DNA from: Eledone cirrhosa
Lineage: Eukaryota
DNA: 64,000 bases
NCBI GenBank assembly: GCA_964016885.1
Contig: OZ024742.1
Location: forward strand, 250,852,001-250,916,000
Reading direction: 5' to 3'
Position 1 is the first letter of the stretch; every line of letters begins with the position of its first letter. Of this stretch, positions 1,724 to 57,780 are shown one piece after another. Both the position numbers and the translations under genes were made by a program. The notes under the pieces were generated by a model. It saw only the letters and a list, made by a program, of their open reading frames with translations. It was not told the origin of the DNA and searched no databases.

Positions 1724-1822
1724 CATTTCTATATTAAATATTTATACTCTGCCATGTATTGAGTACCTTACTTACTGTGGTTATTCCCAAATGTACCTGG
1801 TGGGATACACACTAACGTTAGT

Positions 1823-2374
1823 ATGGAAACGTCACTAAACGTTAATGGGATACACACACACACACACATATATATCCATAACCCTATAGCTACCATCCAG
1901 ACTTCTACACAGCATAATAACCGGCAGACTAACACCCAGAATAATTGTAACTGTAGATCAAATAGAACCTGCCCTTTAAATAAAAATTGCTTAATCAAGG
2001 ATATCATATACTCATGCACAGTCACAACTATCAATTCTTCTGAAACCTATATAGGCTCTACTTCTAACTGCTTCAAAACTAGATACAATTCGCACCTCCA
2101 CTCTTTCAAAAAACACAGTCTAGCCAACTCCACTTCACTATCTAGCTACATACACTATCTAAAAACTAAAAATAAACCATATACACTTAAATGGGAAGTG
2201 ATAGGTAATGCGACATCGTACAAACCACCTAATAAATTTTGTAACTTCTGTCTACTAGAGACCCATACTATCATCTTCTCTAACCATAACCTCCTTAATA
2301 AAAAATCAGAAGTGTTCGCGTCTTGCCAACACCGCTTCCGACACTCTTTCCAAAACTTTAAACCCAATATATAG
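1823..2374 (+). pseudogene. PLE C-terminal GIY-YIG endonuclease fragment
   Basis: CNC-x5-CPL-x3-CL linker, IIY..TYIGST..FKTRYNSH, LSSYIH, CNFCLLE, LLNKKSE, CxH motifs. Confidence 0.88.
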
Positions 2375-3905
2375 CAATGTCAGACTTGAACCCGTCACCA
2401 CAACTAGCAACTAGCATCTCAACACCCATTAATCCACTTTAGCGCAAATAGTGACATCCTCATAGTACCTTTTACCCTGGAGATATCCCCATGTACTTCT
2501 ACTTTTGGTATATTGGCCTTGAATTATTTGGACTACATTGCACTAATATATAATTAATGTAAACTGTAGGCACTGAATTGGTTGTGCTAACATTATCCTG
2601 TGCATGGAGTGCCACCATAGGATAGATAGATGATTAAGTAATTAATTCATTAATAGGGCTATATGTCCTATATGCTGAATACAATGATTTATGTACAGAC
2701 GATATATGAGTTTTGAGTATAGGTGTGGCTTGAGGGCCAGATTAGTGTCTTTGTATGAGAGAATTGACCTCTGGACCACACTGGTAATATTTAACTTTGC
2801 CATGCATTCAGACATACAATGACCTGGAGCTTACCGGGAGTCATATATAGTAATAAGACCCTGCCAGGTTCTGCGGGTGGACTACAATTACAAAGATCAT
2901 TGATTTGGAGGTCTGACTCTTCTTGTAGAATGTTCGGTTGTGGCACTCCATGATAGAAAGTAATCATCCTGATACGAACACCTTTGGTACTTCTTGATAG
3001 ACTACACTGTAATTTATAGATAAGATACTTAAATTTAGAAGTTGTTTATAACCTTATATAATAGGGACTCATCTCAAACACCATTAATGCACTTTAGGAT
3101 AATAAATTTAACTGTGAAAATCAGCCAGTTACCTCCTCTTACGCATTAACTCCCCTTAATCACACACACACTTCCGGAATATAATACAATGTCATCTCTC
3201 ACAACAAAAACAGCCTGATCTATGAATCGAAGTATATCATGGTTCAACGGACACCCAGTGTCGAATCATCATGGATTGTATAATGGACATGTAGTATATA
3301 CATTGCGTTTCCTGGATTGTGTGAGTGGTGGGGGGTGCGAGGACAGTGGTGCTGTTTTGCTTCTCATTTGTTACATTTGTTATATTTTTGGTGTTTCTCT
3401 ACAAACGGGCTTACACGTATATATCGTACAGGTGTGTGTGAAAAATGCTTTAACAATACAGACCCCATGATGCTATTGATTGCCTGCTTTAACTGCTTGT
3501 TTTACATGTATCAATCTGCCGCACTATAATACTGTATAAATAAGACACGCGTGCATGCCACACGTGAGACTGTTTCGTACACTGACTACCCTAAACTTTC
3601 CTCTTGCTTTATCTTCATAAACTGCCAATGTTTTATTTTTATTTTTATTTATTTTAATTTTAATTTTAACTTTAATTTTGTCCTTTAATATGAATGTATG
3701 TAAATTGCCATATTATTATGATGGATGTCAACCCACTGTGGGTCAATATATACATATGTTTTTATATGTCTCTTATGTTGAAAAGGAGGTCAAGTATGTA
3801 AAAATCACTAAATAGTTGCTCCGAAGAATCCAAACCTCGGTTTGGAGGAAACAATTGTAAGCAAATAAATGATTTAAACTGAACTTTGATTCATGTAATT
3901 TCTAT
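1846..3905 (+). mobile_element. 5'-truncated Penelope-like retroelement (Neptune-like): GIY-YIG end of ORF, long 3' region, terminal HHR
   Basis: ORF 1823-2374, then ~1.45 kb non-coding ending in an HHR at 3816; 3535-3905 recurs inverted at 51561-51925. Confidence 0.8.
3816..3864 (+). ncRNA. Minimal type I hammerhead ribozyme with CCGAAGA core (family B)
   Basis: TTGCT-CCGAAGA-ATCCAAACCTCGGTTTGGAG-GAAA-CAATTG-TA-AGCAA; 5-bp stem I, 8-bp stem II, palindromic stem III. Confidence 0.75.
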
Positions 3906-11761: not shown

Positions 11762-14572
11762 TCAGCGAATGCTTTAAACGGAGCGGAAGAAATGAAACGA
11801 TGCGAATGATTTATGGACTCGTTCGGACAGGCAGAAGAATTTCAATATTACCATGGAATCGTCCGATTCTGCGCAGGTTACCGATCTTCTGGGAATTTTT
11901 TTCCTTAATATGATAAATAGAAAACTGCCGGAGATTACCGGTGGTTTATATAGAGATGATATATTATTTACTGTAGTTAAACATAACAATAGTGAACTAA
12001 ATAGAGTAAAGAAAACAATTATAGAATTCTTTAAAAATTACGACCTGAAATTAGAAGTAGAAAGTAACAGTAAAGTAGTTAACTTCCTAGACGTAGCCCT
12101 TAATTTAAACTCAGGCCTATATTACCCTTTCCATAAACCCAATGAAAACTTAAATTATGTTAGTTTTTATTCAAATCATCCTAAATGTGTTAAAAATGCA
12201 ATAGTCAATAGTGTTCAACAACGTTTAACTAGATTATCTGCTAACAAATCCATTTTTAATAGTAAAGCTGGATATATAATGAAGCGTTGCATAAGGCAGG
12301 ATATAAAAATAATATTGAATATGTAGAAAATAATAATTGTAATTATAAACTAAATATTCATAATAATAGGAATAATATAAATAAAGCAGACTGTAAAAAT
12401 AAAAATAAAAATAGTATAAATATAAATAAAAATACCAATTTCGTGAATAAATCGGGGAAAAAAATTAGAACTAAATCTATTATTTGGTATGCCCCACCAG
12501 CATCTTTAGCTATTAAAACACCCTTAGCACAATTATTTTTTAAAGCATTAGATAAATGTTTCCCTAGAATACATAAATACTACTCTATCTTCAATAGACA
12601 CACAGTTAAACTATCTTACTCAACAACTATGAATATGGCTCAAAATATTGCAAAAATAAATAGCAGAATTCTTAGTTCTAATCAACAGATAATTAGCGAT
12701 AATGACAATATTAATAATAATAATAATACTATAGTTACAGAGAATAACAATAACATTTAAGCACTTACAGTAGAACACCTACAAATATTACCAATGATAA
12801 TGCGAACAGTTTAGATCATAGAAATAACATGAAATCGAACTGTAACTGTAGAAGTATATCTGAATGCCCTTTGCAAATTAACTGCCTTGATAAGAATTTA
12901 GTATATAAATGTACCATTAAAGTAAATAATAATATTACTTATAACTACATAGGTGCAACTTCCTCGAACTTTAAACTGAGATTTTCTAATCATAAACATT
13001 CTTTTTCTAATCCGGATGAGAAATGTTCTACTTCTTTATCACAATTAATATGGTCTTTAAAAGAGAAAAATATAAAATACTCAATCTTTTGAACTAAACT
13101 TAGAAACTGTGAAGTTTATCAGAATAATTCCATTTCACCTAACTGCAATCTTTGCAATACCGAGACTCTATTAATAATTGCTAATTATGGTAATTTAATT
13201 AATAAAAAAAAGGGAATTATTCTCAAATTGCCTCCATAAATCTGCATCAACATTTCAAGCATCATATAAAATTAGGAAAAAACATTGACTGAGTGAGAAA
13301 AGATATTGACTCTTATTAATAATTCTTGTAACGCTTCTATTATTGTTATTATTACTATTATTGATATTGTATATAATGTCTCTACCTCACCTTTAGGAAA
13401 GCATACCTGTTCTTTAAAGGAGTATGATAATCTCTTGATTGGTTAAATACCTTAAGTTTCGATTTAGAATCCTCTTTTTAAATCCTGTATTTTATAAATT
13501 TGAGATCTGTAATATCTTCAGACTTTTAAACCGTTTAATTTAATTTAAACGTTTGGTACGTAGTACAAAGATATTGTTTACATTTATCGTGTTTAAGTTT
13601 CGTTTTATCTAAATTGAGTAATAATCTGTATTTAACTTGATTTATAGTATTGAATACAGTAAAATTTGGTTGAATCGAAATATTAATACTCTCAAGTGTA
13701 AATATAACTAATAACTAATCATATATGTAATTGATAAATATCGATTTAAATAGTATTGTTTATATAAAATGCTTATACAGATGCTAATATCTAAGTAAGT
13801 TAAGTTTAATATCATATTTACTATATTTGTAAGCACCATTGTTAGTTAATAATATTTTGAATTTTGAATTTTATAACTTAATTATTGAATGTATTTACTA
13901 ATTTAAATTTGCTCCAGATTATCTTTGAAAATATGTTATATTATCTTATATCACTTTATATTGTTTTAATTTTGATATAATATAATAGTATAATTTCTTT
14001 CTAATATTATAGAGTAAAAATTTCACGGTATTTAATTGATCGTTTCTACCTAACTTAATATTTGAAAAAAAAAACGATCACGCATCATATACCTCTATTC
14101 TCCTTATGTAATTACTTTATACTATCTATATCTCCCTTTCTTCTTTTTTATCTTCAACTCTCTATCGTTCCCTTTTCTCCTCTATTTAGCTAGCTCTCTC
14201 TCTCTCTCTCATTTGTTTTTTTCTCTAATACGGATATTTATATATTTAATTATTTAAATATTTAACAGTTATGTGCTGATGTGTTTATGTATTTTATTTA
14301 TCTATATATATGTATTTATTTTTATTTTTTCTACACATTTTCCTACGTACCCTCTCAATTATATGTAGTTTGTCATGTTACTGCTTATGGTATATAAATA
14401 TTGAGTTTTGTCATAACTAATCACTGCCAAGACTGGAATTGAACCATCAGCACAGTTGAGGTATGTCAGACATCAATTTATTTTATCTGATGAGGACGTA
14501 CTGAGGAAACAGCACAGTACCTCTGAAATATATATAATAAAATATATTTGATCACATGAATGTCTATATTTA
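11762..14572 (+). mobile_element. 5'-truncated Penelope-like retroelement: RT C-terminal half, Asn-rich linker, GIY-YIG, 3' region with HHR
   Basis: ORF pieces 11853-12326 (GGLYRDD, VNFLDV, YHKPN-like, SNHP), 12287-12760 (IIWYAPP, IFNRHTVKLSYS), 12829-13288 (CNC..CPL, LVY..YIG, CNLC); frameshift and stops. Confidence 0.9.
14481..14542 (+). ncRNA. Minimal type I hammerhead ribozyme (family A) at PLE 3' end
   Basis: TTTTAT-CTGATGA-GGACGTACTG..CAGTACCTCT-GAAA-TATATA-TA-ATAAAA. Confidence 0.8.
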
Positions 14573-21565: not shown

Positions 21566-24483
21566 TCTATATATATAAAACAGAGGATGTGTGTTTGTCT
21601 GTTTGTGTGTGGCTGCTACATTATTCGAGGTTGGCGTCTATACCGCTCGCCCGATCTCGCTCAAATTTGCATACATGACCCTTTACATTGCTTAGGCTAC
21701 TTTGTTTTTTGATAGGTCCCCCAGGGGCCCGCAATCCACCTTTTTGTCTATTTTGGGTGAAATCGGGAGATGAGGTTGCATTTTATGCACGCGTGAAAAT
21801 TTTTTCCTTTTGAGTTTTTTTACCCGGTTTTTTGCTAATATGGGTAGAAAGAGTCTAAATTTTGTTGACGTGCTCGAATCATTTCGAAATTCGGTCGAGA
21901 GTGGAGGTCGAATCTCCACTTCGTATATAGAGAGACAGGAATAACAGGTCTTATAGTAACATTACCTTCCCCTTCCTCCTTCTTTAGAGAGAGAGAGAGG
22001 AAGATAGAGAGAGAAGTTTTGGGTGTCACAGAAATATTACATTCCCCTCTCCACTTTGGTCAGTGAGCGAACCACTGTTGCTATAGTAACATTACCTTCC
22101 CCCTCCCCCTTCTTTATTGAGCGAGGAATATAGAGAGAGACGTTGTTGGTGTTACAGTAACATTACCTTCCCCTCTCCACTTACTTTGGTCTTTGAGACC
22201 GAGGGAACCACTGTTGCTATAGTTACAGCTTCACGTGACACAAACCAGTTCCTGCCAGTTCTGACCACCTGGCATCAGTTGAGTCAGTTTTTGCTTTCTT
22301 TCGGTCGAGAAGTGGACAAATTTTCGCCTTGAATCAAAAAAAAATTTCATGAACGGCTGGAGGTGGCAGCTTTTATTCTGTTTTGGCAAAAAATTCTGCA
22401 GACTCTTATCGTTGATTTGAGTGGCCTGCAAAGCTTTGGTTTTCAAACGCTACACTTGCTACTTGGTTAGGCTACTGTGTAGATGTGTGCTTCACTCTCA
22501 CTGCATTACATTTTGTGACCTCGCTTTCGGACTTTGCCATTCCCAGTACGTTTTTTGTTTACTTTTTTCTTGCTTAAAATTGTAACAATTTGTCACTATT
22601 TTTACCTTCCCCAAAATACTGCTTATCACCTTCGCTTTTTTGCCTTTGCTCTAAACCTGCTTCCCCTTTACTGTTTACTGTACTATTGCAACCATGCCAC
22701 TGAAAAGAAAGAGTACCCTTAGCCGTAGGAAAACATCGTCTGTTGTTTCAAAAAAGAGGCGATTGAATGAGCAGTCTACGGATGCCGGACTGCATTTTTG
22801 GCCACAAACCCCTGTTACTTCGCTTTCAAACTTAAGTACCCCTAGCACAGCCCAACCCAGCGCCTCTCTATCTACGGTTACCGCTTCGAATCATGCCATT
22901 CGTAATTGTCGGAATGCAGTTGCAACAGCCGCCTCTAGGGCAGCAGAGAGTGACAGCCAAAGAGCTCTTCGTAGGACTAGGAATGCTGCAACTACTGCTG
23001 CTGCAAGGGCCTCCGAAACTAAACAGCAAACAGCCTCCAGACGGTCAAAGAACGCTGCTTCAACCGCCGCCTCCCGTGCCGCAGAAACCGACCAGGAGAC
23101 AGCCATCCGAAGGTCCAAGGACTCCGCCTCCACCGCAGCTGCCAGAGCATCCCAGACCGTGATACAGACAGCCATCCGAAGGTCCCAGAACGCTGTATAT
23201 CCACCGCCGCCTCCCATGCCGCAGAACATCAAACAGCCCGCTGTGCTCGGTTGAACACAAACAACGCACGAAGAGACACCGCCAGAGGAACGAGTCCACA
23301 TGAGTCATTTTGGCTTATGAAGGCTTTCAATTACGATCCAACAGTAAAATACTCCGACCGTACGGACATTCAACTAGGCAGGATGGATGTCATATGCTAA
23401 GTCTGTGGTGCAGAGAAGTGGCCCAGAGAACCACCTGGCCTGTGCTGCTCTAATGGGAAGGTTTCACTTCCTCCTTTGCGAGAACTTCTTAGCGGAGAAA
23501 CCTCTACGTCAACAGACTTCCACGGACATCCCGATAGGTTTTAGGCGACATCAGTTTCCCGTAAGGCCCTGCTTCGCGATCACCATAAACAAATCTCAGG
23601 GTCAAACTTTGTCCGTGGCGGGCATTCATCTAAAAGAGCCCTGCTTTGCTCATGGCCAACTTTATGTTGCCTGCTCGCGAGTTGGTAGTAAGGACTCCCT
23701 TTTTTCATACACACCCAACGGTATGACCCGCAACATAGTCTACAAAGAGGTCCTGTAACGTGCATTACCACTGAGATGATTTAACACAAAAAGAGTTTAT
23801 ATATATACAAACACATACACACACTCACATACAGATATATATATATCATTATCTATAAAAGCGAGTGTGTGTGCATGTTCCTTTTCTATACGATTAAAAA
23901 AAAACACCTCCTTCAATGGAAAATTACTTATCAATATTCGAAATAGCTTCAATTAGGTCATGCAGAATTTATATATTTAAAATTGATCCCCAATTACGCC
24001 AAAAAAATTGATAAAACTCAATAATTCACGATATACCTCTCTCATAAATCTGATATCAAAACTGAAGATTACGACCCTAAATGGTGGACAGTTCGAAATA
24101 CTGCTACTGCTGTACTTCTGGCTGTTGCTCATCTCATTCTATCAGGCTCTTCCAACAACTTTACAGTACTTTATCATCCATTAAAAAAAAACTGTTTTTT
24201 GGCTGTTTTTTTTGTTTTCGACAGAAAATTTATTACGATTTCTGTTTGCTATTCTTAATATATATTTTTTTTTTGTGTTTCCTTTTTGTGATTTTTGTTG
24301 GTTTCTTGGTTGAGAAAAGAAGATGGTAAAACCGGGTTGAAGAGATTTCCATTTCTAAATTCATTACAACTTTGACATATTTTATGTAAAGTGAGTATGA
24401 GAAAAAAAAATTCTTCATATTTATTGTTTCCTAATCGGAATAAAAACAGCAGTAACCCGGGCAACGCCAGGTCATTCAGCTAG
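21566..24483 (+). mobile_element. Helitron, internally deleted/composite
   Basis: A|TCTATATATATAAAA 5' end; 3' hairpin CCGGGCAACGCCAGG then CTAG|T; RepHel N-terminal and PIF1 helicase C-terminal remnants inside. Confidence 0.88.
22694..23758 (+). pseudogene. Helitron RepHel remnant: N-terminal basic/Ala repeats and Cys motif fused to PIF1 helicase C-terminus
   Basis: ASRAAE..RR repeats; C..CGAEKW..EPPGLCC.NGKV.LP in a shifted frame; RRHQFPVRPCFAITINKSQGQTL..HGQLYVACSRV..TRNIVYKEVL*. Confidence 0.88.
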
Positions 24484-25507: not shown

Positions 25508-28500
25508 TTCGTTTAAAGTCCATTTTCCACGCTACCATGGGTTAGACGGGAGTTGTCCCACTTGCGGCAAGGTTGGTCGGGTGACCGTGTCTCGCTCATA
25601 TAGGACTATCTGGCAGGTTTTCTACGGCTGGATGCCCTTCCTAACACCAACCACATTTACAGTGTGGAACTGGGAACTTTTTACCGTGTTACCTACATGG
25701 CCACATTACAGCGTGGACTGTGTGTTTTTTCTTGTGACACCTTCACGATCTCGATCTCGATCTCATTATCTCATTTATTTGGACTGGATGTTGTGGTACC
25801 AACTTTATAGAGAGAGAGGGTGGTGTTGGTGGGAGTGGGAGGATAGGGTAGAGGTAGTGGATTGGGGTGTATATTTGGTTAAGAGGTGCCTACTGACTGT
25901 AGGTTTCGCTTTGTACATAGGCAAGGCAGGTCTTCTGTATTACTGTGTAGTGCCAAAGATCTTGGTCCAGTGACATTGTCTTAGAGAGGTGCAAGTGTGT
26001 AAGGTCGGAATTTATCAGATCGTCCCAGGTTTTTCTGGGTCTACCTACTCCGTAACTACCATCAATTTTGATTGCCCTGCACTTTTTTATACAGCTGTCG
26101 TCTTTCATGCGCATCACGTGGCCATACCAAAGTAGTCTTCTCTCGAGTAAACAGATCTGATCCCTCTTATTCCTAATTTCTCACTTAGTTCATTTATGCT
26201 TTGCCATTCACGTATATTACTATTACACATCCAACGGAGCATGCATGCTTCGTTCCTTTCCAGTCTACGCAGGTCCTCTGCACATAATGCCCAGGTCTCA
26301 CTGCCATGTAGCATTGCTGTTCATATACAAGCATCATACAATCTGCCTTTCATTTTTAGAGAGAAACCTTTTGTGGCCAATAGTGGTATTAGCTCTCTGA
26401 ACTTTTTCCATCCCGTTCTGACTCTGGCTACTGTACTTTCAGAACACCCTCCACCACTGCTGATTTTGTCACCCAGGTAACGGAAAGTGTCTACTATTTC
26501 TATAGAACCATCTGGGCAATAGAAGGGGCTAGTATCCACCTGAGCATCGGCCACATATAAAGTCTACATTCTTAGATAGTTTACCTGTGATCCCATTACA
26601 TCTTTTATGCACCCATACTTTGCATTTGGGACATAAAATGGAGTTTCTGCCTACTCCTTTCCTACACACTGAGCATGGCCATTTCCCAGATGAGACCAGT
26701 GCCCCATTTTCCTTCCTACAAACTAGAACTTTAGTCTTAGACAGGTTAATTTTAAGGCCTTTTGATTCTAGGCCATGCTTCCATGTTTGGAATTTCTTCT
26801 CTAGTTCAGCCATTGATTCAGCTATGAGTGTTAGATCATCTGCATATAGAAGTTCCCATGGGCAGCCGGTCTTGAACTCCTCCGTTATAGCCTGAAGGGC
26901 AATAATAAATAATAGGGGGCTAAGGACGGAGCCCTGATGAACACCAACTTTTACGTTAAACTCTTCACTATATTCGTTGTTAATTCTAACCTTGCTGACT
27001 GTTTCTTTATACATGGCTTGTATAGCTCTCACAAGCCATTCATCAACACCTAGTTTTCCAAGGGCCCACCAGATAATCGAGTGGGGTACTCTGTTAAAGG
27101 CTTTCTCCAAGTCAACAAAAGCTAAGTATAGGGGTTTACTTTTAGCTAGGTACTTCTCCTGTAGTTGTCGTAGAATGAAAAGAGCGTCTGTTATACTTTT
27201 ACCTGACACAAATCCGAATTGCATTTCAGCTACCTCAATTCGCTCTCTGATTAGTTGCGCTATTACTTTTTCTGTGAGCTTCATGACCTGGTCAATTAAT
27301 TTAATGCCTCTATAGTTTCCCCTATCTAGGGCATCTCCTTTACCCTTGTAGCAGTTAATGATGATGCTGCTGCGCCAGTCCTTCAGAACGACCCCATTCT
27401 GTATGACTTGGTTTACTATCCGGATGACCATAGTGTGTCCCACCGTTCCAGATGCTTTCAGCATTTCAGCAACTATTTCCGAAGACCCAGCCCCCTTGCC
27501 CGTCTTCATGTCTTTGATTGCCTTACTTATTATACTACCTTCAACTTGCACTGATGGTCCCTCTATTGGATCGATGTGAGGGAGACTATCTTTCTCCCAA
27601 TTATTCTCCTCATTTAGTAGCCTTTCGTAGTGACACTTCCAAGCTACCTTCTTATCAGCATCAGTGATGGCAAGTACACCATCATCATTAAGGACACACT
27701 TCTCCCTGACAATATCACGGTTTTCCTTGATACATTGCCTAGCAATCCTGAACACCTCACGTTTTTGGTCCTTGCGTTGTAGAACATGCTTGAACTTTCT
27801 TTCCTCTGCTTCCCTTCTTGCGAAGTACACTTGTCTCCTAGTTTCCCTCCTGGCCACTTGATAGTCTTCTCTACTTCCCCCATCCCGCCATGCTTTCCAA
27901 GCCTGCTTTTTGGCCTTGATTGACCCCTCCACCTTACTGTTCTACTACCAAGTTACTCTCCTCCCGCCTATAGGTCTGCTCCACCACAGGTTTCATCTGT
28001 TGCCTTCAGCAGGTTAGCTTTTAGGAATTCCCACTGTTCCTCTATATTGTACGACTCTAATTGCTCTTCCTTACTATCAAAAGCATCAAGTAATATGCTT
28101 TTAAATTTATTACTGGCTGTGGGGTCCTTTAATTTCCATATATTTCTCCTGAGGATAGTCCTCTTCTGTTGTCGAGTACGTCTCATCCTGACTATGAGGT
28201 CGCTAATTATGAGTCTATGTTGAGAGGTGCATTCTTCATGGGGGAGGGATTTAGTGTTTACAACAGACACTCTGTCACGTCTTCTGGTAAGGATATAATC
28301 TACCTGGCTGGTGTGTTCCCCTGATCTATAGGTGATCAAGTGATCGTCTCATTTTTTTAAGTTAGTGTTACAGATAGTTAGGTTATTTGCGTCACAGAAT
28401 TCCAGGATTCTGGTGCCTTCCTCATTTCTAGTACCAAACCCATAGCTTCCATGGATTCCATCATAGCCATCACAATGTTGTCCAACGTGACCATTTAGGT

Positions 28501-29068: not shown

Positions 29069-31604
29069 TCATCATCATCATCATCAACGTTTAACGTCCG
29101 TGTTCCACGCTTGCATGGGTTTGGACGGGGGTAGTCCCACTTGAGGCAAGAGTGATTGTCTTGCTCGCATAGGACTGTCTGGCAGGTTTTCTACAGTTGG
29201 ATGCCCTTCCTAACACCAACCACATTTACAGTGTGGGTCTGGGAGGTTTTTACCGTGTTGCCTACACGGCCACATTACAGCGTGGACTGTGTGTTTTTTT
29301 GTCGTGACACCTACACGATCTCATTTGTTTCGGCCCGGATGGCGCGGCACCAACATAACTTTACATAGGACGGGGTGGTGTGGATGGGGTGGGGGTGGTG
29401 GTGGTGGGACGGGGTGTATTTTGTTAGAGATGCCTACTGGCAAGGCGGGTCTTCTCTGTTACTGAGTACCGCCAAAGGTCTCGGTCCAGTGACATTGTCT
29501 TGGAGAGGTGTAAGTGTGTGAGGTCGGAGTTTATCAGCTCGTCCCAGGTTTTTCTAGGTCTGCCTATTCCGTGGCTACCGTCTATCTTTATTGCCCTGCA
29601 CTTTGTTATACAGCTATCGACTTTCATGCGCATCACGTGTCCATACCAACGTAGCCTTCTCTCGAGTAAACAACATCTGATCCCTCTTATCTCTAATTTT
29701 TTCCTTAGTTCGTTTATGCTTTGCCGTTCACGTATATTACTGTTACACATCCAGCGGAGCATGCAAGCTTCGTTCCTCTCTAGTCTGCGTATATCCTCTG
29801 CACACAATGCCCAGGTCTCACTGCCATGCAACATTGCTGTTCGTATGCAGGCATCGTACAACCTGCCTTTCATTTTTAGGGAGAACCCTTTAGCAGCTAA
29901 TAGTGGTATAAGCTCTCTGAACTTTTTCCAACCAGTTCTGACTCTAGCTACAGTACTTTCAGAGCACCCTCCCCCACTGCTGATTTTATCGCCCAGGTAA
30001 CGGAAGCTGTCCACTATTTCTATAGAACCCTCTGCGCAATTGAAAGAGCTAGTATTGTGTGGGCACTTGCTGCTACTTATTGCACCAGAACACCGGCCAC
30101 ATGTAAAATCTATGTTCTTAGTTAGCTTACCTGTGATCCCACTACATCTTTTATGCACCCATACTTTGCATTTAGGACACAAAATGGAGTTTCTACCTAC
30201 GCCTTTCCTACACACCGAGCACGACCATTTCCCAGAAGGGACCGCCGCCTTGTTTTCTTTCCTACAAACTAGAACTTTGGTCTTAGCCAGGTTAATTTTA
30301 AGTCCTTTTGACTCTAGGCCGTGCTTCCATGTTTGGAATTTCTTCTCTAGCTCGGCCATTGATTCCGCTATGAGTGTCAGGTCGTCTGCGTATAGGAGTT
30401 CCCATGGGCAGCCTGTCTTGAACTCCTCTGTTATAGCCTGAAGGGCAATAATAAATAGTAGGGGGCTGAGAACAGAGCCCTGATGGACGCCAACTTTTAC
30501 GCTAAACTCTTCACTATATTCGTTGTTAATTCTAACCTTGCTGACTGTTTCTTTATACATGGCTTGTATAGCCCTCACAAGCCATTCGTCAACGCCTAGT
30601 TTTCTAAGAGCCCACCAGATAATGGAGCGGGGGACTCTGTCGAAGGCTTTCTCCAAGTCGACAAAAGCTAAGTAGAGGGGTTTACCTTTAGCTAGGTACT
30701 TCTCCTGTAGTTGTCGTACTATGAAAAGAGCGTCTGTGGTACTTTTGCCTGACACAAACCCGAACTGCATTTCATCTAGGTCAATTCTCTCTCTGATTAG
30801 TTGCGCTATTACTTTTTCTGTGACCTTCATGACCTGGTCGATTAATTTAATGCCTCTATAGTTACTCCTATCTAGGGCGTCTCCTTTACCCTTATAACAG
30901 TTAACGATGATGCTGCTATGCCAGTCCTTCGGAACAGCCCCATTCTGTACGACTTGGTTAACTATGCGGGTGACCATGGTGTGTCCCACCGTGCCAGATG
31001 CCTTCAGCATCTCAGCAACTATTTCCGAAGGCCCAGCCGCCTTACCTGTCTTCATATCCTTGATTGCCTTACTTATTATACTCCCCTCGACTAACACTGC
31101 TGGTCCCTCTATTGGGTCGACATGGGGGAGACTGTCTTTCTCCCATTTATTCTCCTCATTTAGTAGCCTTTCATAGTGACACTTCCAAGCTGCCTTCTTA
31201 TCAGTGTCGGTGATGGCAAGTATGCCATCATCGTTAAGTACACACTTCTCCCCGACAATATCACGGTTTTCCTTGACGCATTGCCTAGCAATCCTGAACA
31301 CCTCACGTTTTTGGTCATCGCGTTGTAGGACATGCTTGAACTTTCTTTCCTCAGCTTCCCTTCTTGCTAAGTACACTTCTCTCCTAGCTTCCCTCCTGGC
31401 CACTTGATAGTCTACTCTACTTCCCCCATCCCGCCATACTTTCCAAGCCTGCTTTTTGGCCTTAATTGACTCCTCCACCTTACTGTTCCACCACCATGTT
31501 ACTCTCCTCCTGCCTACAGGCCTGCTCCAGCCACAGACTTCGTCTGTGGCCAACAGCAGGTTTGCTTTCAGAAATTCCCACTGTCCCTCTATATTGTCCG
31601 ACTC
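29066..31604 (-). mobile_element. Young 5'-truncated RTE-clade LINE flanked by (TA)n on both sides
   Basis: Uninterrupted ORF to the stop at 29424, 3' UTR and (GAT)n tail. Confidence 0.96.
29424..31604 (-). CDS. RTE reverse transcriptase ORF (no EN domain) with PHD-like C4HC3 finger after RT
   Basis: YRGIKL, FVDLEKAFDRV, HQGSVLSP, LYADD, CSVC..CPKC..HKRC..CGRC, FRYLG, LRWYGHVMR, GRPRKTW. Confidence 0.93.
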   Translation of the reverse strand, partial: ESDNIEGQWEFLKANLLLATDEVCGWSRPVGRRRVTWWWNSKVEESIKAKKQAWKVWRDGGSRVDYQVARREARREVYLARREAEERKFKHVLQRDDQKREVFRIARQCVKENRDIVGEKCVLNDDGILAITDTDKKAAWKCHYERLLNEENKWEKDSLPHVDPIEGPAVLVEGSIISKAIKDMKTGKAAGPSEIVAEMLKASGTVGHTMVTRIVNQVVQNGAVPKDWHSSIIVNCYKGKGDALDRSNYRGIKLIDQVMKVTEKVIAQLIRERIDLDEMQFGFVSGKSTTDALFIVRQLQEKYLAKGKPLYLAFVDLEKAFDRVPRSIIWWALRKLGVDEWLVRAIQAMYKETVSKVRINNEYSEEFSVKVGVHQGSVLSPLLFIIALQAITEEFKTGCPWELLYADDLTLIAESMAELEKKFQTWKHGLESKGLKINLAKTKVLVCRKENKAAVPSGKWSCSVCRKGVGRNSILCPKCKVWVHKRCSGITGKLTKNIDFTCGRCSGAISSSKCPHNTSSFNCAEGSIEIVDSFRYLGDKISSGGGCSESTVARVRTGWKKFRELIPLLAAKGFSLKMKGRLYDACIRTAMLHGSETWALCAEDIRRLERNEACMLRWMCNSNIRERQSINELRKKLEIRGIRCCLLERRLRWYGHVMRMKVDSCITKCRAIKIDGSHGIGRPRKTWDELINSDLTHLHLSKTMSLDRDLWRYSVTEKTRLASRHL

Positions 31605-31629
31605 TATATATATATATATATATATATAT

Positions 31630-31978
31630 GGAGGTGGAGGCACATGGCTTAGTGGTTAGAGCATTGGCCTTGCAATCGAAAGGTTGTGAGTTCAATTCTC
31701 AGACCGGGTGATGTGTTGTTTCCTTGAGCAAGACACTTTATTTCACATTGCTCCAGTTTACTCAGCTGTAGAAATGAGATGATAGGGACCCCAGGGTCCC
31801 TATCATTCCACTGCAAAGTGGTCGTGGAGGTGCCACGGCAAAAAAGCACCCAGCACTCACTGTAAATGAGGTTGGTGTTAGGAAGGGCATCCAGCTGTAG
31901 AAATCAAGCCAGAATCAGCTCCCGTCCCACCCTTGCAAGCAGGGAAAAAGCGGACGTAAAATGAAATGATGATGATGA

Positions 31979-49529: not shown

Positions 49530-51037
49530 TCATCATCATCATCATCGCCGTTTTACGTCCGTTCTTCCATGCTAGCATGGGTTAGACGGGTTGTCCTGTT
49601 GTGCGCAGTGTCTTGTCGGCTGACCATGCCTTGCTCATACAGGAACTGATTTGGGCTTGGTTTCTACAGCTGGATGCCCTTCCTAACACCAACCTCATTT
49701 ACAGTGAGTGCTGGGTGCTTTTTTCCGTGGTGCCTACACGTCCACTTTACAGTGTGGGCTGCGTGCTTTTTTGCCGTGGCACCTCCACGACCACTTTTCA
49801 GTGGGAGGGTGTAGGGCATATTGTCTATATGCTTCAGCTTGTACCCATGGGAGGTCGGGTACTCTGTATTACTGCGTGACGCCAGAGGTCACGGTCATGT
49901 GTCATCGCCTTTGAGAGGTGCAACTGGGTAAGGTCGACCCCTATCACCTCATCCCAGGTCTTCTTGGGTCTCCCCACTCCGCGGCTTCCATTGACTTCTA
50001 GTGCTCTGCACCTTTTTATGCAGCTGTCATCCTTCATACGCATCACATGTCCATACCAACGCATCCACCTCTCCTGCACACAGCATTTGATTCCTCTGAT
50101 GCTCAGTCTCTCTCTCAATTCATTTATGCTTTGCCGTTCGCGTATATTACTATTACACATCCATCAGAGCAGGCTTCGTTTCTTTCTAATCTACGTAAGT
50201 CTTCCACCTTCAGCGCCCAGGTCTCACTACCATGTAACATTGCTGTTCGGATACACGCATCATACAGTCTGCCTTTCATTTTGATGGAGAAGCCTTTTGC
50301 AGCTAACAGTGGCAGTAGTTCCCTGAACTTCTTCCATCCCGTTCTTACTCTAGTTATTGTACTTTCTGAACACCCACCTCCGCTGCTAATTCGGTCACCT
50401 AGGTAGCAGAAGCTGTCTACTGTTTCTACAGAGCCCTCCCAGAGATTGGTGGTGCTTGTTTCCTGTAGCTGTTTGCTGCTTGCTGTCCCAGCACAGCTGC
50501 TACATGTGAAGCCTACATTCTTAATTAAACTTCCTGAGATCCCGCTACATCTCTTGTGTACTCATTGTTTGCATTTGGGGCAGAGAATGGAGTTCCTACC
50601 TACACCTTCACTACATACTGAGCAATGCCATTTCCTTGAGGGGATCTGGGTTCTGTTTTCTCGTCTACTTACAAGGGCCTTAGTCTTTGTCATGTTGACT
50701 TTGAGACCCTTTCTTTCTAGTCCCTACTTCCAAGTTTGGAATTTCTTCTCTAGTTCTACCATAGATTCAGCTATAAGTGTGAGGTCATCTGCATACAGGA
50801 GTTCCCAAGGGCATCCCGTCTTAAACTCCTCCGTTATTGCCTGCAGGACTATGATGAACAGGAGAGGGCTCAGAACAGAGCCCTGGTGGACACCAACCTG
50901 TACGCTAAATTCCTCGCTATACTCATTGCTAATCCTAACTTTGCTGACTGCTCCCTTATACATGGCTTGTACAGCTTTCACAAGCCATTCATCTACTCCT
51001 AGTTTTCTAAGAGCCCACCAGATTATAGCACGTGGAA
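49530..51037 (-). mobile_element. 5'-truncated RTE LINE
   Basis: HQGSVLSP, LYADD, C-terminal WYGHVMR/GRPKKTW, 3' UTR, (GAT)n tail. Confidence 0.92.
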
Positions 51038-51064
51038 CTATATATAAGCATGTATGTGTTATAG

Positions 51065-51102
<38 letters not shown>

Positions 51103-51244
51103 CGTTTCTGAATTTGTTTAGCAAGATTCTTTATCTGAAATCGTGTGTTGAAACCAGAAATTTATAAATATTTAATAAATTAAATTGAAGTGAAAGCAAC
51201 TGGTGCGTGTGTTTCTTATTGGCAACATGACCCTCCCAAAGTAT

Positions 51245-51408: not shown

Positions 51409-51455
51409 TTTCAGAAGATCCCGTTAAGGGTGGAAGCAGCGGTTCTTTGCTTAAA
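51409..51455 (+). ncRNA. Hammerhead-like motif with CAGAAGA core (family C), damaged GAAA
   Basis: TTT-CAGAAGA-TCCCGTTAAGGGT-GGAA-GCAGCGGTTCTTTGC-TT-AAA. Confidence 0.5.
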
Positions 51456-51489
51456 TTTTAATCTGTTATTTTAATAAATATATTATATG

Positions 51490-51563
<74 letters not shown>

Positions 51564-51603
51564 GAAATTACATGAATCAAAGTTCTGTTTAAACCATTTA
51601 TTA

Positions 51604-51648
51604 GCTTACAATTGTTTCGTCCAAACCGAGGTTTGGAGTCTTCGGCGC
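51604..51648 (-). ncRNA. Hammerhead ribozyme with CCGAAGA core (family B)
   Basis: Reverse complement of 52027-52071. Confidence 0.65.
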
Positions 51649-52026
51649 AGTTTTTCAATGATTGTTTACATACATGACCTCCTTTCCAACACAAGAGACA
51701 CACAGAAACATATGTATATATCGATGCACAGTGGGTTGACATCCATTATAATATTTTAGCATGGCAATTTACATTCAAAGATTAAAATCATATTAAAAGA
51801 AAATTAAAACAAAATTAAAGTTAAAATACAATATCGGCAGTTTACGAAGATAATGCAAGAGGATAGTTTGAAGTAGTTAGTGTATGCAATAGTTACACGT
51901 GGGGCATGCACGTGTGTCTTATTTATATAAGATTTATATAAATCTTATCATCGATATATACATATGTTTCTGTGTGTCTCTTGTGTTGGAAAGGAGGTCA
52001 TGTATGTAAACAATCATTGAAAAGCT

Positions 52027-52071
52027 GCGCCGAAGACTCCAAACCTCGGTTTGGACGAAACAATTGTAAGC
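52027..52071 (+). ncRNA. Hammerhead ribozyme with CCGAAGA core (family B)
   Basis: GCG-CCGAAGA-CTCCAAACCTCGGTTTGGAC-GAAA-CAATTG-TA-AGC; weak stem I. Confidence 0.65.
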
Positions 52072-52309
52072 TAATAAATGGTTTGAACAGAACTTTGATT
52101 CATGTGATTTCTATATAACTGCTCTGTAGAACAACTGATGTTATTACATTGAGCTATTTATCTTACTGGTAATAAGGTAGTAATAAATTACTGTCTTTCA
52201 CTGTTTAGGGTTTAAAATATATATAACTATAAAAGGTTTTAGTATATACATAACCATAAATAGTATCCTTAATATTATGTATATATATATGTATATATAT
52301 ATGTATATA

Positions 52310-52361
<52 letters not shown>

Positions 52362-53150
52362 TTTTATATATATATATGTATGTATATATGTTTATGTGTG
52401 TATGTATGTATGTGTATGTGTGTATGTATGTATATATCTATATGTACATGTGTGTATGTATGAACGTATGTATGTACATATATATATGTATATGTGTGTG
52501 TGTGTATATATGTATACATATATGTATGTGTGTGTGTGTGTATATAGGTATACATATATGTATGTGTGTGTGTATATGCGTATATATAGGCATGTATGTA
52601 TATGTGTGTGTATATATATGTAGATGTGTATGTATATGTAGGTATGTGTATATATATATGTGTATATAAGTGTGTATATGAATATATATATGTCTGTGTG
52701 TGTGTATATTTGTGTGTGTGTATATATATGTATATTTATGTATATGAATATGTATATGTATGTGTATGTATACGTTGGCACATACATATGCACAGGCCTA
52801 AATCTTAACTATACTTTAATGTTCTCATCATTATTTACTTTTACCATTTTAATAACCTGTCATTTTCGTTTAACAACTTTTATTTATATTATTCTTAAAC
52901 TCCGGAGCTGGAAATCATTCGATTATTCTAACTAGAACATTAGTCTAATGACTGCTTTTATACCATAAATGTATTTTTGACTTTGCAAGAAAATGTTCTC
53001 CTTGCTCCACATAATGACGTAATTATCCTCGCTTTTTTTCCATTCATTGCCAGGGAACATCTTCACGAACCAAAGTAACGTCTTCCTATTTTGCTTTGGT
53101 TGTAACGTTTTTCAAAATATTTACTTCTGTGTCCACTGACTGATTTTTGT

Positions 53151-53203
53151 AAGTTTCAGAAGATCCCGTTAAGGGAGAAAGCAGCGATTCTTTGCTTAAA
53201 CTT
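53151..53203 (+). ncRNA. Type I hammerhead ribozyme with CAGAAGA core (family C)
   Basis: AAGTTT-CAGAAGA-TCCC-GTTAA-GGGA-GAAA-GCA-GCGATTCTT-TGC-TT-AAACTT: all three stems pair, CUU site. Confidence 0.72.
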
Positions 53204-53227
53204 TAATCTGTTCTTATAATAAATATA

Positions 53228-53270
53228 TGATGATTTCTCCTGAATGAAACAGTTCTAGTCCTGTAGAAGC
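53228..53270 (+). ncRNA. 5'-clipped hammerhead ribozyme (family of 828-878)
   Basis: TGATGA-TTTCTCCTGAAT-GAAA-CAG-TTCTAGTC-CTG-TA-GAAGC. Confidence 0.6.
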
Positions 53271-53919
53271 CATTTCTATATTTATTATAATATATTATAT
53301 ATATATATGTGTGTGTGTATATATATATATATATATAAGGTAAATAAATTGAAAATGCAACTGAAGTCTTTAAAGGATATTTTTTATTTCCTTTACCGGT
53401 TTCACAGTTTTTATGATTTTCAAAAGTAAAATTGAGATGGAGGGTTTGTATTTCTATTGTGGTTTGTCTTGCATCATATATGTATATATATAGAGAGATA
53501 TAAACCTAGGAAAATTAACAAAGAGAGGACAAGACAACAAACAAAAACAAGGCAAAACGAAAAACAATTTTTTTAAGAAGAAATCTTTAAAAATTATTTT
53601 TTGAAAATATAAATACTAACGAAATCTCCAAAATCATCGTCCGTTGAGATGTACTTTGGCAGTTTTGTCCCCTACCAACAGTACTGCAGATTTTCCAGGG
53701 ATCACTTCCATCCAGAGAAATATTCAATTTGTAGCAGTCAGGTCAGGAAGTCCAAAAAATGAGGAGTTTCCTTAAAGATTGGACAGCCTCACAACATTGG
53801 TGCACTTCTCTGATGCAGTAGGGATTTTGAAGAAAAAAAGGTAATTCTTTGTCTATTCTTTCCTTGCATTTATAATTTTATATATTTATATATATACATA
53901 TATATATAATTATATATAT

Positions 53920-57055: not shown

Positions 57056-57109
57056 TGAATGATGAATATATATATATATATATATATATTTATTAAAATA
57101 ACAGATTAA

Positions 57110-57160
57110 AGTTTAAGCAAAGAATCGCTGCTTTCACCCTTAACAGGATCTTCTGAAACT
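57110..57160 (-). ncRNA. Type I hammerhead ribozyme with CAGAAGA core (family C)
   Basis: AGTTT-CAGAAGA-TCCTGTTAAGGGT-GAAA-GCAGCGATTCTTTGC-TT-AAACT; the element 57089-57440 is homologous to 52890-53225. Confidence 0.7.
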
Positions 57161-57780
57161 AAAAAAAATCAATCTCTGAACGCAGAAGTAAATATTTCGA
57201 AAAACGTTGCAGCCAAAGGAAAACAGGAAGACGATACTTTGGTTCGTGGAGACATTCCCTGGCAATGAACGGGGAAAAAGCGAAGATAATATGTCATTAT
57301 TTGGAGCGGTGAGAACAATTACACGCAAAGAACAATTACACGCAAAGACAAAACCATGTTTATGGTATAAATGAAGTCGTAGACTAATATTCTATTTAGG
57401 AAACCGAATAATTCTCGGCTTCAGAGTTAAGAATAATGTAAATAAATTATAATTGAATATAAAAGAGAGATAAACACAGATATATACATATATGTGATCA
57501 AATTGTAAGGGACCAGATTCGCTAGGGTGAAAATAATACTAACTATGAACAATAGGGTTTGCCAAACTCAATTTAATTATCTATCTTTCCATCTCTTTAT
57601 TTTGTTCCATGCATTTCTTCTTTTTTCTTCTTTTTCTTCGTTTTCTGTCTTTCTTTCCTTTTTTTCTCTCTTTCTTTCTCTCTGTTTACAATTTTTTCAC
57701 TGCCAATTCAACTTTTCAAATACAAGTCGATGTTGTACGGTATGTCAAATCTATTTATCTATAAAACTGTTTATATTGTA

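Follow-up and report, generated by a model that had tools for sequence, protein, structure and literature searches.

Three copies of a short motif with the layout of a hammerhead ribozyme lie in a 64,000-nucleotide stretch of the Eledone cirrhosa genome (the window). All three read CAGAAGA at the place of the catalytic core, with A instead of the canonical U at position 4. The genome is that of an animal, 3.0 Gb in size and with many TA repeats. A 19-nt core has three matches in the window, against 0.01 expected from shuffled sequence, and a descriptor scan of the window found the type I layout at 53151 (+) and 57161 (-), plus two canonical CTGATGA motifs of another family. Rfam hammerhead models gave no match within the window, canonical-core families there included, and no hammerhead match to a young copy of the family at E<=10. 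The relevant features are:

52599..53228, + strand: 5'-truncated 3' UTR/pseudo-LTR (pLTR) copy of a putative Hydra-clade Penelope-like element, older subfamily, TA tract at its end
53152..53202, + strand: type I hammerhead-like fold; A53152 is +1, where about 12% of family copies begin, probably a capped start
53157..53163, + strand: core C3-A9, CAGAAGA, with A at position 4 (53158) replacing the canonical U
53164..53176, + strand: stem II region, 3 bp (53165-67 with 53173-75) and a 5-nt loop
53177..53197, + strand: GAAA (53177-80), stem III and the triplet C-U-U (53195-97)
53180-84 with 53192-96, + strand: stem III, 5 bp with a non-palindromic 7-nt loop
53135..53211, + strand: outer helix Ib (53135-41 with 53205-11), with two private changes in the 53151 copy
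51409..51481, + strand: second copy, starting two bases past +1, with GGAA in place of GAAA
51339..51407, - strand: the element's 3' "tail" in inverted orientation, head-to-head with the 51409 copy, a typical Penelope inversion
57086..57449, - strand: third copy, intermediate subfamily, with its hammerhead-like fold at 57160-57110

In standard numbering the motif reads C3 A4 G5 A6 A7 G8 A9 ... G12 A13 A14 A15.1, C16.2 U16.1 U17. Every catalytic position except 4 is canonical (C3, G5, A6, G8, A9, G12, A13, A14 and the pair A15.1-U16.1). The strict type I core C3-U4-G5-A6-N7-G8-A9 fails at position 4 only, its other six positions fitting, and G12-A13-A14, the A15.1-U16.1 pair and H17 are all present in the family. 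Judged by its sequence, U4A is the one real anomaly of this hammerhead. The cut is predicted between 53197 and 53198. The family form has a U-U next to the 3-bp stem II, a 5-bp helix Ia and, across an internal loop, the 7-bp outer helix Ib, which can form only in read-through RNA starting upstream of +1. The 4-bp stem II of the 53151 copy (a private U-A instead of U-U) and its 6-bp stem I are two private changes.

The first-pass annotation had placed the copies at 51409 (+), 53151 (+) and 57110 (-) and described the same conserved elements in each. The places and CAGAAGA (at 51412 (+) in the second copy and 57155-57149 (-) in the third) hold, but A13 is gone from the 51409 copy, as are the two opening bases of helix I. 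The window copies are older stubs, about 80-85% identical to young copies upstream of the motif, and their differences in flanks and stem II represent decay and not covariation.

The carrier had been described as an element of about 330 bp without an ORF, ending at a TA tract and in need of an autonomous partner. Its copies do end at TA tracts. It is longer, however: homology of the carrier of the 53151 copy extends in the 5' direction to at least 52599 (84% with genomic locus L023) and, in a weaker, microsatellite-rich form, to 52465 (72%). The copies are truncated ends of an autonomous element. The 48-nt motif has 13,036 exact copies in the genome, and the 22-nt stretch directly 3' of it has 32,208; the reversed control gave zero in both cases. 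A GIY-YIG ORF was reached upstream in 5 of 30 motif loci. Locus L061 has two motifs 3,259 bp apart with the ORF between them, and L062 contains a natural uninterrupted 712-aa ORF coding for reverse transcriptase (RT) and GIY-YIG endonuclease; 713-aa open frames hold 6 of the 150 RT-piece matches listed.

The protein consists of an RT and, C-terminal to it, a GIY-YIG endonuclease in a single ORF, with the motifs RWR 41, DKT 119, YRDD 352, CNCRNRADC 570 (CxCX5C), YIGLT 604, CDLC 665 (CxxC) and CKH 693 (CxH). DKT, CxCX5C, CxxC, CxH and a single ORF of this arrangement characterize the Hydra clade (Craig et al., 2021, PMC8557442, accessible text). The RWK motif of the clade reads RWR here (K to R), CCHH is absent and the GIY-YIG core contains only one Cys. 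Pfam gave nothing for the 712-aa ORF and a weak GIY-YIG match for one neighbour family. Among 7,996 scored, 1,201 relatives reached E<=1e-20, and the 120 relatives listed show 39-57% identity. Seven metagenome loci code for relatives of 37-42% identity; four of them, all one family, have a canonical CTGAGGA hammerhead. The copies show the hallmarks of Penelope elements: pLTRs, variable 5' truncation, head-to-head inversions, a tail and (TA)n targets; they have two 3' ends about 90 nt apart. These features identify the carrier as the pLTR end of an autonomous Penelope-like element with a 3.26-kb unit, its assignment to the Hydra clade being based on protein motifs. A non-LTR retrozyme, made of tandem non-coding hammerhead units, does not fit: the repeating unit is coding and 3.26 kb long, and each copy is an end of it, truncated to a varying extent. 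Nor does a minimal dimer-type Penelope hammerhead, in which helix III is absent or a 1-2-bp palindrome, agree with the 5-bp helix III and its non-palindromic 7-nt loop.

Several other observations concern this and neighbouring elements. Roughly one in three of the loci that best match the window copy (L008, L010, L015, L016, L019, L020, L021, L024 and L026) has the same tRNA-SINE-like sequence directly upstream, possibly marking a chimeric non-autonomous subfamily; we took these heads as nested or chimeric insertions. Splice donor-like AG|GTAAGT sites are found in the element's 3' UTR (L061:3431-3440 and about 3790; L134:4748-4757) and are retained in an older subfamily. If an intron ran from such a donor to the AG in helix I, Drosophila virilis Penelope would be a parallel case; among the loci examined there were no spliced genomic copies with this junction. 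Two other Hydra-like Penelope families are represented in the window by broken pieces of RT and GIY-YIG, at 11796-13300 (+) and 1763-2374 (+), and a first look at the genome gave 37,199 and 65,205 candidates for them, suggesting very abundant elements. Long RT frames at 29424-31655 (-), 26529-27941 (-) and 50124-51161 belong to what we take to be an RTE-like LINE family, and frames at 22655-23758 (+) presumably represent a Helitron Rep/helicase end. A long palindrome at 950-1230 carries another CTGATGA hammerhead type near 1150 on both arms (a fold-back insertion).

Likeness among copies by itself is inheritance and no evidence of selection, and this applies to the agreement of the three window copies, which had been presented as conservation. 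Constraint is nevertheless visible in the history of the family. The alignment comprised 84 copies after removal of duplicates. Similarity to the window copy had served to select the loci of 32 of them, an upstream anchor those of 30 and RT sequence those of 20; two came from the window itself. Another twelve, present only in loci chosen by other criteria (for the most part the exact motif), were excluded. Rare-variant frequencies are based on these 84 copies, and entry required coverage across the motif, so very diverged motif copies could have dropped out. A4 is fixed (84/84). A second allele shared by at least 15% of copies is present in 13 of 89 upstream columns and in none of the 65 structured columns, i.e., helices, core and hairpin loops (p=7e-4); the internal loop has 2 of 11 such columns and the downstream part 3 of 13. 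The RT-picked copies alone (n=20) give 12/89 against 0/65 (p=0.0013), or 9/89 upstream at a 20% cut-off (p=0.011). The diagnostic columns outside the motif form a subfamily ladder. Private decay is similar within and outside the motif (0.034 vs 0.044). In contigs from public runs, 14 variant sites are listed in L062:1148-1242, the 95 bases before the motif, and none in the next 56 (1243-1298); the main run may be the assembly's own sample, and the few contigs of two further organisms (2 and 10) were left out. In the ORF (11 aligned pieces covering 548 codons), the changes that older copies share over the same history affect 12% of third codon positions and 2-4% of first and second ones. Since subfamily changes spare all structured columns yet affect upstream ones, the alignment indicates that the motif is under constraint while the family evolved.

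Complementarity is retained in 1,581 of 1,664 cells (84 copies, 20 pairs), and none shows a compensatory change; a separate check of 10 copies found none either. As no pair changes on both sides, structure is not proven by covariation within the family. This is an outcome that the first-pass annotation had named as refuting its reading, but the family is too invariant for that test to carry weight. The loops are as invariant as the stems, which leaves room for a non-structural constraint such as a promoter or a protein site.

Truncation points of the copies provide information on the RNA. Helix Ia's first base, and not the predicted cut, is where the 5' junctions concentrate. About 2,280 copies (~12%) start exactly at +1 and about 132 of 32,208 (0.4%) at the predicted cut, against 61-91 at a control position; all these counts miss junctions hidden by chance matches. 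Genome-wide, the base before the +1 A is T in 16,568 copies and non-T in 2,445, and it is G in 55 of the first 100 non-T copies listed. True junctions were found in 28 of 30 inspected non-T copies, and an extra G is present in 20 of these 28 versus 3 of 20 at other junctions (p=1e-4). In full-length L1 insertions an extra G is a mark of the mRNA cap (PMC11702581, accessible text). Because about 12% of copies begin exactly on helix I's first base, most of these following an additional G, we infer that capped transcripts start at helix I and that uncut RNA is reverse transcribed. Both fit the internal RT initiation and uncut templates described for a Poseidon element in the accessible text of PMC11167929. 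The first ATG downstream of the +1 A is the ORF start, at +203 or +205.

Two other origins of the +1 junction were considered. It is not a type III cleavage product, as inspection by eye shows no helix I hairpin and no helix III partner, and a cut adds no G. Trans-splicing as the origin of the extra G was rejected because the upstream sequence varies among copies. The same start pattern was found in a sister family with the canonical core: of 70 copies picked by an anchor, 26 start between -11 and +3 of helix I and one near the cut, and 8 start exactly at +1, 7 of them after G. Among 70 copies of the A4 family picked likewise, 11 start between -11 and +3 (one being an inversion artefact) and one near the cut. 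The footprint thus locates the start but cannot tell whether the A4 form cuts, and the lack of a cut-site footprint was rejected as an activity test because the canonical sister family lacks one as well (1/70).

Thermodynamic prediction places the hammerhead fold 3.4-5.2 kcal/mol above the minimum (-5.6 vs -9.0 and -10.4 vs -15.6 kcal/mol). The pair probability of helix Ia does not exceed 0.07, and A14 is available as a partner for U17. With A4 the first core strand can form a rival 5-bp helix with U-GAAA, which would bury the core; the probability of this helix across five windows is 0.00-0.45 with A4 and 0.00-0.02 with U4. Outer helix Ib reaches a mean pair probability of 0.96 in one window and 0.03 in a longer one, and the extended helix I contains an internal loop. 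Fold z-scores against shuffled sequence (-0.72 to 0.40) were not significant. The canonical sister family is likewise not predicted to fold as a hammerhead, and since the models ignore non-canonical pairs of the core, such predictions would be weak evidence against the fold. The motif is hammerhead-like in layout and predicted to cut slowly at best.

Relatives in the same genome differ at position 4. Their copies in the window are:

52030-52080, + strand: copy of a C4 lineage, with an inverted partner near 51600-51650 (- strand)
near 3820-3870, + strand: another C4 lineage copy
53228-53290 (+), 878 (-), 1680 (+) and 46381 (-): copies of a canonical CTGATGA family, also found at L325, L335 and L314; the piece at 53228 is inserted at the TA end of the 53151 copy

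The C4 lineage has C4 in 18 of 20 copies, cores CCGAAGA or CCGATGA about 300 nt before 826-aa ORFs (L129-L133) and 45% protein identity over the RT half; stem II of its older relatives differs yet pairs. In the nearest sister family seen (50% protein identity over 463 aa) the core is CTGATGA and the U-U is shared; its stems differ in sequence and still pair. One CTGATGA subfamily, with 12,900 anchor matches, belongs to the closest sister element and shows extra-G starts at helix I. That stems differ yet pair between the A4 family and its sisters was seen by eye in a few families. Together with the layout and the position in a Penelope pLTR, it backs the hammerhead-type fold with U4A proposed by the first-pass annotation. 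The same annotation overstated its case in calling U4A combined with a CUU site doubly atypical. A canonical-core family with a CUU triplet was also present among the loci examined in this genome, and U17 is found in 10 of 25 Hydra-clade families in File S2 of PMC8557442, as is a U-U beside stem II in 14 of 25. In the table of that paper all 25 families have CTGA, the descriptor having required a canonical core, and a triplet starting with G; only C at 16.2 makes our triplet unusual.

The A4 family thus resembles the elements of Craig et al. (2021) in its RT and GIY-YIG ORF, protein motifs, (TA)n insertion, pLTR, inversions, tail, U-U and U17. Its CAGA core sets it apart from the families in the accessible parts of that paper, as do the C at 16.2, stem III (5 bp, closed by a 7-nt loop), the motif RWR in place of RWK and a unit length of 3.26 kb. 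Hydra-1_Obim, as given there, has a different hammerhead and protein, and we found no mention of a start site at helix I in those parts. Penelope hammerheads described by Cervera and de la Pena (2014, PMC4209133, accessible text) share the type I pLTR fold, mostly single truncated copies, opposite-strand pairs and an expected low activity. The A4 motif, in contrast, is not of the minimal, palindromic dimer type, and the core variant given there is U3-A8, not A4. The Poseidon element PAc (Frangieh et al., 2024, PMC11167929, accessible text) is alike in its two internal RT start sites yielding a tail, an uncut main template and a lack of ends at the cut site; its hammerhead is protein-assisted. 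The PAc ORF starts within its hammerhead, that of the A4 family about 155 nt past the cut site, and the evidence is biochemical for PAc and genomic here. Among natural core variants, U10.1-U11.1 is tolerated, and U4C, a non-U base at position 4, is active enough to support viroid infection in vivo despite lower activity in vitro (Perreault et al., 2011, PMC3088659, accessible text). U4A is not named in that text, and the variants in it are rare single finds; A4, by contrast, has become fixed throughout a young family of large size. A deep scan covering one type III hammerhead found all single changes of the CUGA turn low in activity and unrescued (PMC9901934, accessible text). Penelope hammerheads, their low activity and uncut templates are already published. 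A fixed, constrained U4A, a parallel U4C lineage and a cap footprint at helix I were not found in the literature examined, nor was any report of a U4A/CAGA core. A work by Lunse, Weinberg and Breaker reportedly, to judge by its title, ties small hammerhead variants to Penelope-like elements and may already contain a position-4 variant.

Any explanation has to account for the place of the motif in an element with an intact ORF, its copy number, the fixed A4, the absence of subfamily changes within it and the start peak with an extra G. We marginally favour a pLTR hammerhead with fixed A4, likely the first 51 bases of a capped RNA, and predicted to be a weakened, slow or protein-assisted ribozyme still under selection. 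Close behind ranks a dead descendant of a hammerhead, kept as an internal core promoter and 5' leader or as a structure for RT binding or priming, which we regard as a serious though smaller possibility. It would explain why the invariant block coincides with the probable start region and why loops are invariant too, with no covariation in the family; the Penelope promoter is known to be internal and TATA-less (PMC2377424), catalytic mutants left in vitro insertion unaffected for a Poseidon element (PMC11167929, accessible text), and the CUGA-turn mutants of PMC9901934 agree with a loss of activity. The missing cut footprint also suits a dead fold, but it is shared by the canonical sister and does not discriminate. 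Against a dead fold stand the retention of all other catalytic bases and the extent of the block, which stops where the predicted outer helix stops on either side and takes in +54 to +60, past the usual core promoter; with only 14 columns this is not significant alone. No DPE-like match was seen by eye.

A fully competent ribozyme, with A4 tolerated or compensated, e.g., with A7 or by contacts between loop II and helix I, and position 4 freer than the consensus implies, seems to us unlikely. Fixation of A4 across the whole subfamily series of an element with an intact ORF, the parallel C4 lineage, a stem III long enough for a monomer and the tertiary contacts thought to offset core changes (PMC3088659, accessible text) would agree with it; the mutagenesis in PMC9901934, the weak predicted folding and the thousands of copies made from uncut RNA would not. 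The opposite extreme, a relic whose motif was killed by a founder mutation and passed on by common descent without selection, is highly improbable. Individual copies do decay alike in and out of the motif, only a few dozen lineage changes are available and the alignment filter may favour intact motifs. Yet none of the structured columns changed against about 15% of flanking columns, RT-picked set included, and the public-run contigs show the same gap.

If the weakened ribozyme is the right reading, events might run as follows. RNA polymerase II would start at the +1 A, where TTAGTT resembles an initiator. An ATG-free leader of 202-204 nt would feed the ORF. Internal priming by the element's RT would use two TA-like sites, roughly 75 and 165 nt from the RNA start, and synthesis would run to the cap, with uncut RNA as a main template. 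As the change at position 4 would, by published mutagenesis, lower the cutting rate, most RNA would keep its cap. An occasional cut after U17 could uncap the message or trim tandem transcripts; it would be assisted by the protein that the element encodes or, in read-through RNA, by the outer helix.

The role of hammerheads in Penelope elements was called unclear in the accessible text of PMC8557442, and in this genome related elements form a natural series, in which a hammerhead at the same place has U, C or A at a single core position. From genomic sequence alone, the extra-G footprint places the start of the RNA at helix I and points to copying of uncut RNA. We speculate, rather doubtfully, that Hydra-clade elements start on the first base of the hammerhead and use the ribozyme as a cap-removal switch, which lineages tune down at position 4 (A here, C nearby) while keeping protein-aided cutting; this would make the motif a natural, selected and active U4A hammerhead with tens of thousands of copies. 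Should the A4 form cut, searches based on the consensus miss a class of natural ribozymes. If it is dead, a very successful young family transposes with a constrained dead ribozyme, which would point to a role as a promoter or in RT binding.
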